DNA of 45,030 bases from a virus. Its lineage: Duplodnaviria > Heunggongvirae > Uroviricota > Caudoviricetes. A program made the translations under genes and the position numbers. The number at the start of each line of letters is the position of its first letter. The first letter of the stretch is position 1. The DNA lies in IMG/VR virus record IMGVR_UViG_2851949629_000008, positions 1 to 45,030 of that record. One strand, given 5' to 3'. Shown piece after piece: positions 1-40,859 of this stretch. The notes under the pieces are model-generated. The model saw only the letters and a program-made list of their open reading frames with translations, ran no database searches and had not been told where the DNA came from.

Positions 1-267
1 TTACTCTGCAGGTGAAGTCGGCCACTCAATATCAGGTGCGGTTGATGTATCAACACGGTTCAGCAACACCCGATACTTCTTCCAGGCTTCCAGCAACGAG
101 TTTTCTTCCTCCGTTGCGATCTCCAGATCTACAGCATCCTGAAGTGGCGCAATATGCTCACTGAATTCCTGGATGTAGAACTGTGTGGTGACGGTCTTCC
201 AGCCATTCGGCTCCTGCTGTATCGAAGCATACCAGGCTATTTCAATATCGCTATGCTGCGGCAGCAT
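1..267 (-). CDS. tfa: Tail fibre assembly protein (Tfa) C-terminal domain ORF, 88 aa, internal start
   Basis: Translation ends ...[27 protein letters not shown], matching the lambda/E. coli Tfa C-terminus as recalled; lacks the N-terminal half. Confidence 0.6.
16..70. repeat. Direct repeat copy 1 (tfa 3' end, ~55 bp)
   Basis: ggccactcaatatcaggtgcggttgatgtatcaacacggttcagcaacaccc recurs at 1066-1120 with 1 mismatch (g/a at the 24th base of the quoted string). Confidence 0.8.
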
Positions 268-3323: not shown

Positions 3324-3923
3324 TCAGAATTTATAACCGACACCCACGATAAAACCGTCAGTGCGCCAGTCACCACTGCCGGAGCCTTCATAAGCAATAT
3401 CAATGGCCACGGATTCGGTCGGGTTAAACTGCACGCCAGCCCCCCACGCCAGAGACGTGTTACTGTGGCGACCATCATCACTTGCGGTCAGCACATCGTG
3501 CGTTTTCCCCTTGTTGTCAGTTACGCGGAGATAATCCCCGGAGAAAGTCGAAACACGGCTGTAAGCCACACCCGCCATCGCATATGCGCTGAACCACTCA
3601 TTCACGCGCACAGATGGCCCCGCCATCATGCTGAACCAGCGGTTACGCACGGAATCTTCATGCCAGCGGGTATCACTGTAACGGGTAATCTGGCGATTCT
3701 TGTCTCCGGAATAACTGAATGACGTCACCAGCCCCAGCGTGTCCGTAAATTCATAACGGTATTTCACGTTAATGCCCTTCAGGTCATCGTTGCCGGGCAT
3801 ATCAGTATGGGACTGAATATACCCGGAGCTTAGTGTGGACTGATGCTCTGCTGCACTCGCTGGCGTACCAGCGGCGACCAGCCAGACTACTGCAGACAGA
3901 ATAACAGCACATAATTTACGCAT
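3324..3923 (-). CDS. lom: Lom outer membrane protein (Ail/Lom family)
   Basis: [12 protein letters not shown]... signal peptide, beta-barrel-like C-terminus ending GYKF, located after J as in lambda. Confidence 0.9.
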
Positions 3924-3990: not shown

Positions 3991-6900
3991 TCAGCTGATA
4001 CTGATGCCTGCGGTGGCTTTCTTCATCACCACAACCAGCAAATCGCTGATACTTGCTGTGGGATACCAGTTATTTACCAGCCATGCTGACACCGAAAACT
4101 CCAGTGTCATGTGACCGTGACCGGCAGGCATATCAATAACGCCACTGTAAATCAGCGTATTATCCAGCGCGGTACGGTTATAAATTTCAGCACCGTTTTT
4201 CCGCACTATCAGACGGCATGAGGAGTAAATATCAGTATGCTCTCTCTCATGCTTAGCGCCACTGAATGCCACCGCCGGAATAACAATTTGCCGGTCAAAC
4301 GGCTGATCGTCATAAACCCTGACGGTAATGGTCCTTGATGGCCACCGCTCCGGTGCTCGGGAGTCACGGGGGAAAGCTTTGCCCACTGTTTTAACGAGAT
4401 CGCCTTCAATCTGGTGCGCGGACAGTTTTCCCAGAACCCGACAGTTCTCGTTAATCGTGACGTTGTTGAGCGTCCCTGAGTTCGCATTCACGTTACCGCT
4501 GATATCGGCATTTTTAGCGGTCAGCTTTCCGTCCGGTGTCAGGGAAAATGCCGGCGGATTTCCACCGCTGGTAATGGTGGGAGCCGTCAGGCGTTTCAGG
4601 AACACGTCGTTCATGAATATCTGGTTGCCCTGCGCCACAAACATCGGCGTTTCATTCCCGTTTGCCGGGTCAATAAACGCGATACGGTTAGCGGCAACCA
4701 GAAACTGGCTCAGTTTGCCTTCCTCCGTGTCCTCCATGCTGAGGCCAATACCCGCGACATAATGTTTGCCGTCTTTGGTCTGCTCAATTTTGACAGCCCA
4801 CATGGCATTCCACTTATCGTTGGCGTCCTTCCACTCTTTCGAAAACTCCTCCAGTCTGCTGGCGTTATCCTCCGTCAGCTCGACTTTTTCCAGCAGCTCC
4901 TTGCCGAGATGGGATTCGGTTATCAGGCCTTTGAAAAAATCCAGGTAACCTTCCGCATCATCGCTCGCCCGACCGACGGCCTCCACGAATGCCGATTTGC
5001 CAACGGTGTTCACACTGCGGATATAAAAGTAATAATCATGGCCCGGTTTGATATTGATACTGGCGGCTATCCAGTACAGCCCCGTGCCAAGGTAGCGGGC
5101 TGTGGTTTCAACCTGCCTGATATCAGCAATCCGTTTTTCCGAGAACCAGAACTCAAACTGTACCGTCGGATCATAAACCGCAAGATGCGGCGTGGCGGTT
5201 ATCTGAAAATAGCCCGGCGTCAGCTCAATCCGCGACGGTGCTGCCGGTGCGGCAATCCGGAACGATACCGATGCCGGATCGCCCTGCTGTCCCCACGCAT
5301 TTACCGCCCGGACTGTCAGCCTGTAATTTCCTGGCGCCAGTTGCGTGAAGCGGTATGTAGTTTCCGTCGTCCTGGCCGTGCTGACCAGCCGCTCACTGCC
5401 ATCGTCCGCTGTTACGGTCAGACGGAGCAGGAAGCTCACGCCCTTCACCACCTTCGGTGTGTCCCATCGCGCCAGCACCTGATACTCCCCGCTGTCTGCG
5501 GTGACTTCGGCAGTCAGGTGCTGCACCGCTGGCGGCGTGACACCATTCACCGTGCCGCTCTGGTCGCCGTCAAAGTGCGCCCCGTTATCCACGATGGCTT
5601 CTTTTTCCGGTACATGCTGCACGGCGGTGATGGCATACGTGCCGTCGGCGTTCTCACGGATACTCACGCAGCGGAACAGGCGCTGGCGCAGCGTCGGCAG
5701 CTTCAGCCCCCACACGCTGTATTCAGCAACGCCGTCAGGAACACGGCTCACTTTCACCTTCACGCCGTCGGTGACGGACTGAACCTCCACGCTGACCGGA
5801 TTGCCACTTCCGTCAACCAGGCTTATCAGCGTGGTACCGGAGGATGGCAGCGTGATTTCACGGTCGAGCGTCAGCGTCCGGGTCTGGCTGTTTACCGCCA
5901 GCACGCGCCCGCCGGTGCTGATACCGGCATAGTCATCATCACAGATTTCAATGACATCGCCCGGCACATGGCGAAGCCCTTCGGCACCCACGCTGAAGTC
6001 CACGGTCTGCGTTTCCAGCAGTTCTGTTTTAATCAGCCACAGCCCGGCTCGGTGCGCCTGCCCCCGACTGGTACAGCCAAACGCATCCATCTTCGTGACG
6101 TTACGACCGTAACGGGCAATGGCCTGCGAGTCCTCCACAAGCTCTGTTGCCGTCTCCCAGCCGTTATCCGGGTCAATCCAGTTCACCTCAACGGCATTAT
6201 GGCGGTCTTTCAGGGCGCTGAAGCTGTAGCGGAACGGCGCGCCATCATCCGGCATCACCACATTACTGCGGTTATAGGTCCACACCTTATCTGATGGTCG
6301 GTCCTGCACGAACGTCAGCGTCTGCCCGTTCCATACCGGCATACAGCGCATCGCCGAGCAGAAATCACTGAGCACATCCCACGCCTTACGCTGCGTGGTA
6401 AGCCAGGCATTACAGGTGATGCGCGGCTCCGTGCCGCCAAAACCGTCCGGCACTGACTGGTCGCAGTACTGGCCGATGACATACAGCGCCCATTTATCCA
6501 CATCCGCCGCACCAAGACGTTTCCCCATGCCGTAGCGCGGGTGGGTCAGCATATCCCACAGACACCATGCCATGTTGTTGCTGTATGCCGGTTTAAACGT
6601 CCCGTCCCAGATACCGCTGTATTGCCGCGTCTGCGGGTTATAGTTCGATGGCACCTGCAGAATGCGCCCGCGAAGATGATAATTACGGCTCACCTGCTGG
6701 CTGCCGAACTGTTCCGAGTCCACCTGCACGCCGACCAGTGCCGTGTTCGGGTAGCACTGTTTCACATCGATGATTTCAGTGTATGACGACCAGAGCGTTT
6801 TGTTCTGCAGCTGGTCTGTGGTGCTGTCCGGCGTCATCCTGCGCATCCGGATATTGAACGGGCGCGGCGGCAGGTTACCCACCACCACCGAGGCCAGATA

Positions 6901-26176: not shown

Positions 26177-26251
<75 letters not shown>

Positions 26252-26254
26252 ATA

Positions 26255-26330
<76 letters not shown>

Positions 26331-26332
26331 AC

Positions 26333-26409
26333 TGGACCGCCACCGGGGACTCGAACCTCGCACACTCAACTTAAAGGGTTGACGCTCTTTCCTGATGAGC
26401 CAGTGGCGG
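26333..26409 (-). tRNA. tRNA-like gene, anticodon loop CCUUUAA (UUU, Lys-type; C33 is noncanonical)
   Basis: 77 nt, 7-bp acceptor stem, T-loop TTCGAGT, CCA end; one A-C mismatch in the T-stem. Confidence 0.4.
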
Positions 26410-26410
26410 T

Positions 26411-26486
26411 TGGTGGCCCTTGCTGGATTTGAACCAGCGACCTGGCGATTATGAGTCGCTCGCTCTCACCACTGAGCTAAAGGGCC
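26411..26486 (-). tRNA. tRNA with CAU anticodon (Ile2/ileX-like or Met)
   Basis: GGCCCTTTAGCTCAGTGG...CTCATAA...GGTTCAAATCC resembles E. coli ileX as recalled. Confidence 0.7.
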
Positions 26487-31409: not shown

Positions 31410-31927
31410 TTTTTCGTGGGATGAGCTAAGGCTTTCAGCTTTTTTAGATACATAAGCCGCGTTTCAAGAAATCGAACTTGCCTTTCAAGATCCTCAATGC
31501 GTCGGTCTTTTGACAGCTCCAATGCTGATGCCGCTTTTTCTGGATCAACTGATATTGCAATGTTTCTTTTGGTGCCAATCTTGAGCGCGCGTAAACCAGC
31601 TTCTCCGCGCTCTTCATAGACCTTCAGCCACCTGGCTACAGAACCACTACCAGCAAGCATAAAGTGAGCAGCAGCCTGATTAAGGGACATGTGCTGCTCG
31701 ATCACAGCTTTCACGACCTTAATACGCAACTCTGGATCAGCACTAACGCCTTTAGGTTTGGGAATTAAACCTTTTTCTCCATGTTTTTCATAGAGGGCAA
31801 CCCATGTCCTGACCTGGGTTCGGGGGACACCAAAACGTGCCGAGATGATCCTGTAACCATCATCAGTTGTGAAGTAGTGATTCACGACTTCAAGGCGCTT
31901 TTCAAAAGGGTATTTTGGCTTTGACAT
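31406..31927 (-). CDS. insJ: IS150 OrfA (InsJ, HTH)
   Basis: 173 aa; overlaps orfB. Confidence 0.9.
   Translation of the reverse strand: MSKPKYPFEKRLEVVNHYFTTDDGYRIISARFGVPRTQVRTWVALYEKHGEKGLIPKPKGVSADPELRIKVVKAVIEQHMSLNQAAAHFMLAGSGSVARWLKVYEERGEAGLRALKIGTKRNIAISVDPEKAASALELSKDRRIEDLERQVRFLETRLMYLKKLKALAHPTKK
31422..31428 (-). promoter_or_regulatory. IS150 -1 programmed frameshift heptamer AAAAAAG
   Basis: Minus-strand A AAA AAG at the orfA/orfB overlap, as expected for IS3-family transframe transposase. Confidence 0.6.
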
Positions 31928-32236
31928 ATTAGGGGCTATTCCATTTCATCGTCCAACAAAATGGGTGCAGTACACTTCGATTTATAGTCGGGTGGGGCTT
32001 TTCTCTATCTGCCTTTTGGTGTTCATGCCTGAGACAGATAGCCTCAAGCACCCGCAGCAATTCTACTTATGACGCAATTTAATGACAACAACTCTACAGC
32101 GGTAGTGTGTTTAACTATTGACATTGATTAACTCATTATTCAAAATTTTTGCGTACGCATTAATGATTTTGTGTCGTTGTTGTGATGGTAAAAAAATCAC
32201 AAACGATCTAACAATAACATAGGTGATATTTTCAAT

Positions 32237-37968: not shown

Positions 37969-37986
37969 TGTTTTAAAATCAAAACA
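37969..37986. promoter_or_regulatory. Candidate operator (TGTTTT-N6-AAAACA) in the cI/cro intergenic region
   Basis: Inverted repeat TGTTTTaaaatcAAAACA ends at the cI start codon; a related site lies at 38691-38708. Confidence 0.35.
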
Positions 37987-38624
37987 TGAGCAAGCAAACT
38001 ATATCTGAACGCATAACCCAACGTATGCATGCGCTAAACCTGAAAGGCAAAGACCTTGTCAATGGCACTGGCGCATCAAAAGGCTCCGTAAGTCAATGGA
38101 TGAACGGTGGAGGAGCGCCGTCCTCGCGTTACATAAGTTCACTGGCAAAAATATTGAAAGTAAACGAAAATTGGCTTCTTAATGGAGGAGAGTTAAATAC
38201 AGGTGATTCGCTTGATCTATCTTTACCGCCGATAAAAACGGTTCCGCTACTATCACTTCAGCAGGCAGCAAGCTGGAGTGATTATATGAAAAATTCCTCA
38301 ATAACCTCTTGTGTGCAGCTTGTCGGAGAAATCCCGGTCAATACCTTTGCAGTTGTTCTAGAGAGTGACAGTATGTCAACATCTGGTGGGGGAGTTTCCA
38401 TCCCAAATGGTTCAACAGTTTTTGTTGATCCCGATCGAACCGTACAACCAGGAAATATTGTCCTTGCCTTACCCAAAGGGACCACAACACCTGTCATTCG
38501 TAAACTGGAGATAGAAGGGCCGGATATTCTTTTAGTCCCCACGAATCCTCGCTACCCTTCAATTATGCTGGATGATCTATCTTGCATATTGGGCGTATGC
38601 TTTAAAATTCAACAAGATATTTAA
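37986..38624 (+). CDS. CI-like repressor (HTH plus S24 LexA-like peptidase domain)
   Basis: N-terminal HTH; C-terminal S24-like autocleavage domain; 212 aa. Confidence 0.8.
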   Translation: MSKQTISERITQRMHALNLKGKDLVNGTGASKGSVSQWMNGGGAPSSRYISSLAKILKVNENWLLNGGELNTGDSLDLSLPPIKTVPLLSLQQAASWSDYMKNSSITSCVQLVGEIPVNTFAVVLESDSMSTSGGGVSIPNGSTVFVDPDRTVQPGNIVLALPKGTTTPVIRKLEIEGPDILLVPTNPRYPSIMLDDLSCILGVCFKIQQDI

Positions 38625-39472: not shown

Positions 39473-39874
39473 ATGGAATTTAAAGATTTACCAATGCCAT
39501 TCCAGGAAATGGCAGCGAATGTGGTTCGCTCTCAACTGGCGACTCTTGACCTGAGTACTGTAGAAAAGGAAACCATCGATACTATATCCGGTAACGTGCG
39601 TCGTGCCTTTATAGGTCTGTATGAAGAGAAGCGCCTATTCGGCGGACAGAATTTGCCTGAAAACAAGAATCAAGCAAATGATGAGAAGCTGAAACACATT
39701 ATCGCCTTACTTTTGGAAGACGCAAAACGTCTACAGCAACTGGAACCAAATGCAGGCACAGAGGCCCGCATTTGGATTGCCATGAAATCACTCAAATGTG
39801 AAAGCAGTGATTATTTCAAAACAACAATTAAAACTACTCAACTTTCGGGAGAGCTACTGAAGAAATTGCCATAA
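39473..39874 (+). CDS. Hypothetical early protein
   Basis: 133 aa ORF with SD GAGG upstream. Confidence 0.4.
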   Translation: MEFKDLPMPFQEMAANVVRSQLATLDLSTVEKETIDTISGNVRRAFIGLYEEKRLFGGQNLPENKNQANDEKLKHIIALLLEDAKRLQQLEPNAGTEARIWIAMKSLKCESSDYFKTTIKTTQLSGELLKKLP

Positions 39875-40151
39875 GAGCATGGTCTTTCTCTTGTTCTGCA
39901 AGATGAGCATTAATACCTGGTATGGTTTTTTCAAATTTATCTATCTGTTGAATAACAACTTCGCGGTATACGTTTGTTTTTGTACCACCAAGCGCAGCCG
40001 TTAATGCAGAAAGCATATTTAGTATCATATCAGTGCGATATGAAAGAATCCTGATAGCTTCATCTTGTTTTTCAATAATAGATTGCAGGGCCTCAATTTG
40101 CTTTTTATCCATTTCACCCTCCTGAGGGTTGGTAATTAAGGAGTTCTCCAC
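39834..40151 (-). CDS. Hypothetical coiled-coil protein on the opposite strand
   Basis: 105 aa; overlaps the 3' end of the upstream plus-strand gene. Confidence 0.3.
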   Translation of the reverse strand: MENSLITNPQEGEMDKKQIEALQSIIEKQDEAIRILSYRTDMILNMLSALTAALGGTKTNVYREVVIQQIDKFEKTIPGINAHLAEQEKDHALMAISSVALPKVE

Positions 40152-40500
40152 GGGTCAGGTGGAGTGCGTGCGCCGGACACGGGTGAACATCCGGCACTGA
40201 CAGTTTACTGAAAGGATATGTCCCTGAAAAGTCAGGGCATAACGCGAAAGCGCACGGCGAAATTGGTCTCTCTGTACGGTGTCGTTAAATTTAGTTCGAC
40301 CGTGCGCTTCCGGTTGTGGCAATCCGCGAAATGGCGCGGCGGTAAGTATGGCGGGGTTATTCCTTCCCCGTTGAGGACACCGGGTTGTCAGGTTGACCAT
40401 ACGCTTAAGTGACAACCCCGCTGCAACGCCCTCTGTTATCAATTTTCTGGTGACGTTTGGCGGTATCAGTTTTACTCCGTGACTGCTCTGCCGCCGTTTT
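40152..40500 (+). ncRNA. Candidate structured noncoding RNA region (GC-rich, multiple hairpins)
   Basis: Stems CCCTGA/TCAGGG, CCGCG/CGCGG, GGGTTGTCA/TGACAACCC, GGCGG/CCGCC followed by GTTTTTAAAG; ORFs here are Arg-rich and implausible; strand is uncertain. Confidence 0.3.
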
Positions 40501-40670
40501 TAAAGTGAATTTTGTGATGCGGTGAATGCGGCTGAGCGCACGCGGAACAGTTAAAACCAAAAACAGTGTTATGGGTGGATTCTCTGTATCCGGCGTTAAT
40601 TGTTAACTGGTTAACGTCACCTGGAGGCACCAGGCACTGCATCACAAAGTTCATTGTTGAGGACGCGATA

Positions 40671-40859
40671 ATGAAAACGTTATTACCAAACGTTAATACG
40701 TCTGAAGGTTGTTTTGAAATTGGTGTCACTATCAGTAACCCAGTATTTACTGAAGATGCCATTAACAAGAGAAAACAAGAACGGGAGCTATTAAATAAAA
40801 TATGCATTGTTTCAATGCTGGCTCGTTTACGTCTGATGCCAAAAGGATGTGGACAATGA
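40671..40859 (+). CDS. Hypothetical small protein (62 aa)
   Basis: SD GAGGA 7 nt upstream of the ATG; ATGA-coupled to the next ORF. Confidence 0.4.
   Translation: MKTLLPNVNTSEGCFEIGVTISNPVFTEDAINKRKQERELLNKICIVSMLARLRLMPKGCGQ

Follow-up and report, generated by a model that had tools for sequence, protein, structure and literature searches.

Work on the small RNA DicF goes back to 1989, and its 190-nt form has been regarded as an intermediate without particular structure. In phage HK022, the put sequences suppress termination in cis via the zinc-binding domain of the RNA polymerase beta' subunit. Both systems involve RNA made early from a repressor-controlled prophage operon, and both offer points of comparison for the locus described here. 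Small RNAs including DicF are released from longer transcripts by host endonucleases (PMC9438474), a mode of origin that DicF shares with CpxQ and MicX, which derive from 3' UTRs, and with the P1 C4 and P4 CI RNAs, which are excised from the leaders of early operons. All DicF species derive from a repressor-controlled promoter upstream of ydfA (PMC10448788, PMC5069750, PMC9438474). The 5' end of the 190-nt species depends on RNase III (PMC10448788) and that of the 53-nt sRNA on RNase E (PMC10448788, PMC5069750), while the 3' end arises by intrinsic termination or by RNase III acting on read-through RNA, which yields a 72-nt form (PMC5069750). On Northern blots of K-12, the terminated ydfABC-dicF transcript is the lower of the bands seen with a ydfA probe and is detected in the wild type; a longer read-through band accumulated only with RNase E inactivated (PMC10448788).

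Identity of the segment and its processing map

The segment studied here lies at positions 40152-40560 of a 45,030-nt stretch of viral DNA (IMGVR_UViG_2851949629_000008), and "the window" below means that whole stretch. It is very probably the untranslated interval between ydfC, followed here by two extra ORFs, and dicB, and as such the precursor of the Hfq-dependent sRNA DicF, complete with its processing map. The initial annotation, made from the letters alone, had described a GC-rich, highly structured noncoding segment in an early-left operon. The base composition bears this out, with a GC content of 0.50 to 0.56 across 40100-40500 against 0.35 to 0.45 in the flanks, and the segment does lie within the dicBF operon of a Qin-like lambdoid prophage. 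The Rfam covariance-model search that had been proposed as a check returned DicF (RF00039) at 40445-40496, over the full model (1-52), with 72.5 bits against a gathering score of 48. The 53-mer of K-12 dicF (b1574), which NC_000913.3 annotates at the corresponding place, maps to 40444-40496 with 52 of 53 bases the same, the exception being the last base (G in the window, C in K-12). The dicF feature (40444-40501, + strand) also has the expected architecture, with an unpaired stretch (40444-40458), the terminator hairpin (40459-40495) and a U-tract (40497-40501), the mature 53 nt being 40444-40496. The annotation had pointed to a terminator-like element ending in GTTTTTAAAG; because the segment contains dicF, this element is the DicF terminator. 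Its suggestion of a phage sRNA was correct in that the segment contains a known prophage sRNA, but the identity with DicF went unrecognized, and of the upstream part no more than the final ~53 nt are sRNA. Neither the locus nor the sRNA nor its processing is new.

The interval from ~40127 to the start of dicB is collinear with ydfC-dicF-dicB of the K-12 Qin prophage at 94% identity overall, and the two are 100% identical over ~40273-40495, about the last 220 nt before the final DicF base. Of 5426 complete E. coli genomes, 4716 match a 581-nt query in which the segment is included. Upstream neighbors, assigned by Pfam or annotation, are ydfA (DUF1391), ydfB and ydfC. The first ORF downstream is dicB (40671-40859, +), encoding the cell-division inhibitor (PF05358, 135 bits; RefSeq annotations of homologues agree), and a YdfD/DUF1482 gene and a gene for an 823-aa exonuclease are also neighbors. 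The order ydfA, ydfB, ydfC, dicB, ydfD homologue agrees with K-12 and RefSeq. Besides the 52 of 53 sRNA bases, the window therefore has in common with Qin dicF the terminator, the position between ydfC and dicB, and the flanking spacer. It differs from Qin in carrying two extra ORFs (39473-39874, +; 39834-40112, -) between ydfC and the spacer, and in its repressor, which is LexA/S24-type (gene at 37986-38624) where Qin has DicA. The first extra ORF encodes 133 aa and belongs to phrog_1363; the second encodes 92 aa, matches phrog_18692 over its full length and is preceded by a strong AGGAGG ribosome-binding site, and neither has a counterpart in K-12 Qin. Transcribed convergently to the operon, the second ORF shares 41 nt with the first in a tail-to-tail overlap. 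A promoter for it would need to be sited in the 5' part of the flagged segment, where no convincing one was found. A promoter-like site on the - strand at 40606-40579 was rejected as being at chance level (5 sites against 4.3 expected).

The initial annotation had also raised the possibility of a processing site, and the published RNase III and RNase E sites do map onto structures within the segment (PMC10448788, PMC5069750). The untranslated 5' part of the ydfC-dicF spacer (40127-40237, +), where homology to K-12 begins and remains collinear, contains small hairpins such as CCCUGA/UCAGGG at 40222-40237, predicted in most homologues. Next comes a long hairpin (40238-40318, +), predicted by folding and with equivalents in relatives. 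Its base pairs CAUAAC (40238-40243) with GUUGUG (40313-40318), and only its apical loop (40261-40296) departs from K-12. The 5' end of the 190-nt species, placed by length alone by counting back from the DicF 3' end, falls at ~40307 (+/- 4 nt), inside a 10-bp run of this hairpin (40248-40257 with 40300-40309), and the modeled hairpin is the probable RNase III substrate that gives this end. The RNase E cut at 40443/40444, taken from the K-12 dicF annotation, is the mature DicF 5' end and lies at the end of an AU-rich single-stranded linker, GCCCUCUGUUAUCAAU (40428-40443, +).

On the 3' side, the end of the 72-nt species, counted forward from the DicF 5' end, is at ~40515 and falls in the 5' arm (40497-40524, +) of a long-range duplex of ~28 bp that folding predicts with 40631-40663. 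The duplex starts at the terminator U-tract, and its 3' arm covers the dicB Shine-Dalgarno sequence GAGGA (40659-40663). It is predicted in all 62 of the distinct spacers collected, and leaders of the cdtI type have an analogous duplex built of unrelated sequence. Because the duplex includes both the U-tract and the dicB Shine-Dalgarno sequence, RNase III cleavage of the read-through RNA might unmask dicB translation, as in the lambda N leader. The dicF-dicB spacer inside the duplex (40508-40648, +) resembles Rfam STnc100 (RF02076), aligning to model positions 21-154, but its 35.5 bits (E = 7e-6) stay below the gathering score of 47; within the flagged segment the match extends over the 3' end alone and leaves out the domain described below. 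An STnc100-like block is also present in the ban operons of P1 and P7, 3' of tRNA genes (L012 3844-3964; L013 2501-2616), and P1-type phages have both of the noncoding blocks that flank DicF, with tRNAs in between.

Several other RNA features were seen. Four tRNA genes cluster within the prophage at 26180-26486 (-; Rfam tRNA, 43 to 74 bits), sok antitoxin RNA (RF01794) is found at 31898-32053 (-; 82.6 bits against 59), which implies a hok/sok-type toxin-antitoxin locus, and Rfam IS009 (RF02111) is found at 41-244 (-; 129.2 bits against 117). In phage cdtI (L014), a C4 antisense RNA (68.4 bits) adjoins isrK (60 bits) at 40-228 (-), near replication and regulator genes. Within 40100-40700 of the window, ARAGORN found no tRNA- or tmRNA-like gene and Rfam no tRNA, and the segment has no Rfam match to C4.

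Fold and covariation of the precursor domain

The comparative evidence indicates that the body of the 190-nt precursor, 40313-40427 (+, 115 nt), folds as a conserved domain of four helices and a pseudoknot. This domain is nearly the whole 5' extension of the 190-nt species. The helices are P0 (40313-40320 with 40420-40427), P1 (40324-40328 with 40335-40339), P2 (40352-40356 with 40366-40370) and P3 (40382-40390 with 40410-40418), all on the + strand, and the pseudoknot joins GUAUGG (40346-40351) to CCAUAC (40397-40402) in the P3 loop. The perfect stems of 5 to 9 bp that had been noticed in the letters are found here as P1, P2 and P3, and the 10-bp run of the upstream hairpin is a further one. 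Thermodynamic evidence for structure is modest by itself, with z = -2.22 for 40152-40560, where 1 of 100 shuffles folds as well, and z = -1.34 for 40152-40444. The case for structure beyond chance is made by the comparative evidence; thermodynamics would not carry it unaided.

Two pattern scans of viral contigs, the second of which left both pseudoknot strands unconstrained, brought the total to 226 loci, with 94 distinct versions of the block. A covariance model that does not include the pseudoknot finds exactly one copy per locus, at 89 to 172 bits, and also recovers copies that had been found by BLAST only, in P7, Salmonella phage F1055 and pPE4. Among the 94 distinct sequences, 96.5% of cells are standard-paired, compared with 35 to 54% when the partners are slid by 1 to 3 columns. 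Changes on both sides occur in 20 of 33 pairs against a shuffle mean of 6.0, a count in which P2 is underrepresented, the covariance-model alignment shifting longer P2 variants by one column. Five covariation measures were compared with 500 shuffles, and no shuffle attained the observed value of any of them, although the sequences are related and shuffle controls overstate the significance. A MAFFT alignment, which is unfitted and less diverse, gives the same picture, with 8 both-side pairs where 2.5 are expected (0 of 500 shuffles) and 96.1% of cells paired. P2 was re-analyzed directly, and on direct inspection P0 has 15 distinct versions, P2 25 and P3 21, almost every one fully paired. The frequent G-U pairs of P0 fit the + strand only. 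The compensatory changes that the initial annotation had suggested looking for are thus present in 40313-40427.

The pseudoknot is kept by double changes as well. It reads GCAUGG/CCAUGC in P1-type phages and, separately, in the locus L215, and AUAUGG/CCAUAU in L159, and a U-G variant is also seen; P7 and P1 differ in the pseudoknot by precisely the GUAUGG/CCAUAC to GCAUGG/CCAUGC double change. Its support amounts to about three independent events. A change in P3, GGGUCGUCA/UGACAGCCC, was rejected as compensatory, being two changes in adjacent pairs. RNAalifold did not recover the four-helix model from the MAFFT alignment, and the different, weak structure that it returned was rejected, with 0 compensatory pairs and a score not above shuffles. 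The loops and junctions of the domain are highly conserved between distant lineages, part of this conservation being imposed by the search patterns, which fix some loop and junction bases.

At permissive E-values (E <= 10 on the window), no Rfam family matches the domain in the window, P1, P7, cdtI or the diverged locus L148; the search returned only DicF, sub-threshold STnc100 and unrelated tRNA, C4 and isrK matches. A description of the domain was found neither in Rfam 15 nor in the searchable literature. As far as these two sources go, the pseudoknotted domain, its spread to P1 and P7, the exchangeable cassettes beside it and the competition between P0 and the upstream hairpin, the last three of which are treated below, are undescribed.

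Distribution and genomic context of the domain

Phages P1, P7 and cdtI carry the domain, as do about 200 viral contigs. By BLAST against phage genomes, 40313-40435 of the window recurs in cdtI, Stx2c phages, Ayreon and others, where it has 90% identity and comes without DicF, and 40324-40420 recurs at 78% identity in P1-like phages. Alignment of the window, K-12, cdtI and P1 reveals a common layout, in which a block of ~115 nt is followed by a variable stretch and then by an intrinsic terminator. A hairpin with a T-run lies within ~100 nt downstream in 138 of 140 distinct copies of the domain. These downstream elements are diverse, with 54 distinct hairpins and at least 10 types of cassette (variable stretch plus terminator), of which DicF is one. 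This is where the locus departs from CpxQ, MicX, C4 and CI, since here a distinct, conserved pseudoknotted domain, which many cassettes have in common, stands before the sRNA.

The position of the domain relative to promoters and terminators varies among phages. In P7 it starts ~25 to 30 nt after a promoter overlapped by C1 operators, an 8-bp terminator follows directly, and tRNA genes and then ban lie ~470 nt beyond that terminator. In cdtI it is in the leader, ~290 nt after a pL-like promoter. P1-type phages have no upstream hairpin before the domain. In the two most diverged lineages, L148 and L169, the domain has no adjacent sRNA or terminator. The L148 copy sits in an ORF-free, GC-rich stretch of ~860 nt (4650-5546) between a promoter-like site and an intrinsic terminator; Rfam has no family that matches this stretch, which may be a large noncoding RNA. 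The reverse case is L006, a chromosomal locus of Salmonella enterica (CP191473.1, reverse strand), where a hairpin is followed directly by a DicF-like sRNA and there is no domain. The DicF core there is at 3663-3684, with the hairpin in the ~120 nt upstream, and the 5' stretch of the sRNA differs (AGAGUUGGGUUU). Each of the two can therefore occur alone, and the domain cannot be required for making the sRNA. In phage vB_Apl-pPE4 (L227), the linker and terminator cassette is tandemly duplicated at ~1600-1800, and other sequence stands in place of the domain's 5' part, which means that P0 cannot form. This record is labeled as an Actinobacillus phage, and the region resembles an E. coli-type prophage (DicA, YdaT, Kil, exonuclease VIII).

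Possible roles of the domain

Our leading guess, held tentatively and drawn by inference from the sequences and the published processing, is that the domain is a precursor domain gated by RNase III. The 5' strand of P0 (GUUGUG) can pair with CA(U/C)AAC at the base of the upstream hairpin in 81 of 95 distinct upstream sequences, and the hairpin itself differs in sequence from lineage to lineage. In the window the two conformers are isoenergetic (-70.0 against -69.9 kcal/mol), the pseudoknot being excluded from the calculation. As the identity with the K-12 locus and the published work show, transcripts from the promoter upstream of ydfA either stop at the DicF terminator (40459-40501) or pass through it. 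According to the model, the base of hairpin 40238-40318 and P0 would vie for the one GUUGUG strand. Because the two compete for that strand, an RNase III cut at ~40307 should remove the competitor of P0, free GUUGUG and let the domain close. The closed domain, with only 6 nt preceding P0, would keep DicF as a compact, longer-lived pro-sRNA of 190 nt until RNase E cut the linker, 16 nt after P0, to give the 53-nt DicF. The domain also seems to behave as a portable unit, beside which different seed-plus-terminator cassettes have been swapped in. The occurrence of the domain and the sRNA each without the other is the reason that we hold this role no more firmly, and the conserved loops and junctions count against it, being more than a simple stabilizer would need.

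Other explanations differ in whether they grant the domain a function as RNA at all. Coding can hardly account for the segment. ORFs of 64 codons (40218..40412, +) and 95 codons (40155..40442, -) do exist there, and several phage records call hypothetical proteins over the homologous block, but neither has a Pfam match, and the ATG of the + strand ORF is missing in the K-12 copy. Of 157 distinct homologues, 124 have a + frame of less than 60 codons and 122 a - frame of less than 90 codons, and segment lengths are spread over every class modulo 3 (89/43/25), with indels that are not multiples of three. Variable columns have neither codon-phase nor third-position bias (37/45, 34/46, 34/46), and the substitution pattern is explained by compensatory changes in helices rather than by coding. 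The statement of the initial annotation that there is no credible ORF here thus stands. It is also very improbable that the structure has no specific role, the segment being a G-rich paired spacer that avoids Rho-dependent termination or nucleases and is conserved through recent ancestry. The thermodynamic z of only -1.3 to -2.2, the identity of more than 90% among most copies, and the positive GC skew, with RNA relatively poor in C, would fit such a spacer, but helices have been rebuilt from different sequences in many lineages, the 6-bp pseudoknot is kept by double changes, and the block persists in lambdoid prophages and in P1 and P7 amid unrelated surrounding sequence. Alternatively, the domain may be a functional RNA of its own, such as a decoy for a host protein or RNA or a platform to which one binds, with the DicF-type sRNAs as mere neighbors. 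RNase III (~40307) and RNase E (40443/40444) would in that case cut out a fragment of ~137 nt, and processing sites do border the domain on both sides. The domain is more conserved across lineages than the cassettes that follow it, the window and P1, ~78% identical overall, agree in its unpaired nucleotides, and L148 and L169 have the domain without an sRNA cassette (in an ORF-free transcript of ~860 nt in L148), just as L006 has the sRNA without the domain. We nevertheless consider an autonomous RNA unlikely, since no partner or target is known for it and the constant link between the domain and a following terminator would be left unexplained; published Northerns contain no stable ~137-nt fragment, but were probed for DicF and are blind to one (PMC10448788).

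A further alternative is a cis-acting RNA that works on elongating RNA polymerase, like HK022 put or Bacillus EAR; polymerase would then pass the DicF terminator and those beyond it and transcribe dicB, the exonuclease gene and xis/int. The initial annotation had also named an RNA-based antiterminator, but we regard such a function of 40313-40427 as rather doubtful. In its favor, the domain always reads in the sense direction of a repressor-controlled early operon and precedes a terminator, within ~100 nt in 138 of 140 copies; its position in P7, just after the C1-operator promoter and before a terminator, and in the cdtI leader would suit an antiterminator; the freely varying linker and terminator fit a mechanism without alternative pairing; and the conserved loops point to a host partner that is itself conserved. 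Among the early-left ORFs that were annotated and scanned against Pfam, a scan that was not a specific search for N-like genes, none is evident. With putL and putR the domain shares the character of a structured RNA early in a repressor-controlled operon, upstream of terminators and with no dedicated protein apparent, and in P7, cdtI and the window alike an early promoter lies upstream and terminators downstream. It lacks their sequence, however, with only chance 10- to 11-mers against the HK022 immunity region, and it lacks their architecture of two stem-loops in ~70 nt, since its 115 nt hold four helices and a pseudoknot; Rfam has no match for it at E <= 10, and each prophage carries a single copy, confined to the left operon. 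The K-12 domain differs from this one at one unpaired base, and what is detected there are the terminated transcript and the terminated 190- and 53-nt species (PMC10448788); the DicF terminator therefore works downstream of the domain. This use of the terminator argues against strong constitutive antitermination. A bolder proposal, which we also judge improbable, is that the domain is a new, conditional class of phage cis-regulatory RNA acting on RNA polymerase or termination; it would decide between stopping at the sRNA terminator and reading into dicB and the recombination and excision genes, with the RNase III hairpin that competes for the P0 strand as an on/off gate. An attenuator of the riboswitch type was rejected, inspection of the at least 10 cassettes and 54 hairpins having shown no conserved alternative pairing between domain and terminator, and two lineages having no adjacent terminator.

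Should the domain turn out to be no more than a stabilizing scaffold, the outcome would modestly refine what is known of this locus. The 5' extension of the 190-nt DicF species, in contrast to the view of it as an unstructured intermediate, appears to be a conserved pseudoknotted domain common to lambdoid prophages and to P1 and P7, which adjoins interchangeable sRNA cassettes and would vie with an upstream RNase III hairpin for a strand. It is a candidate new RNA family for annotation, and several phage records currently place a "hypothetical protein" there. The finding bears on how prophage sRNAs may be matured and gated, and on how early-left transcription may proceed past an internal terminator in phages without an evident N-like gene.
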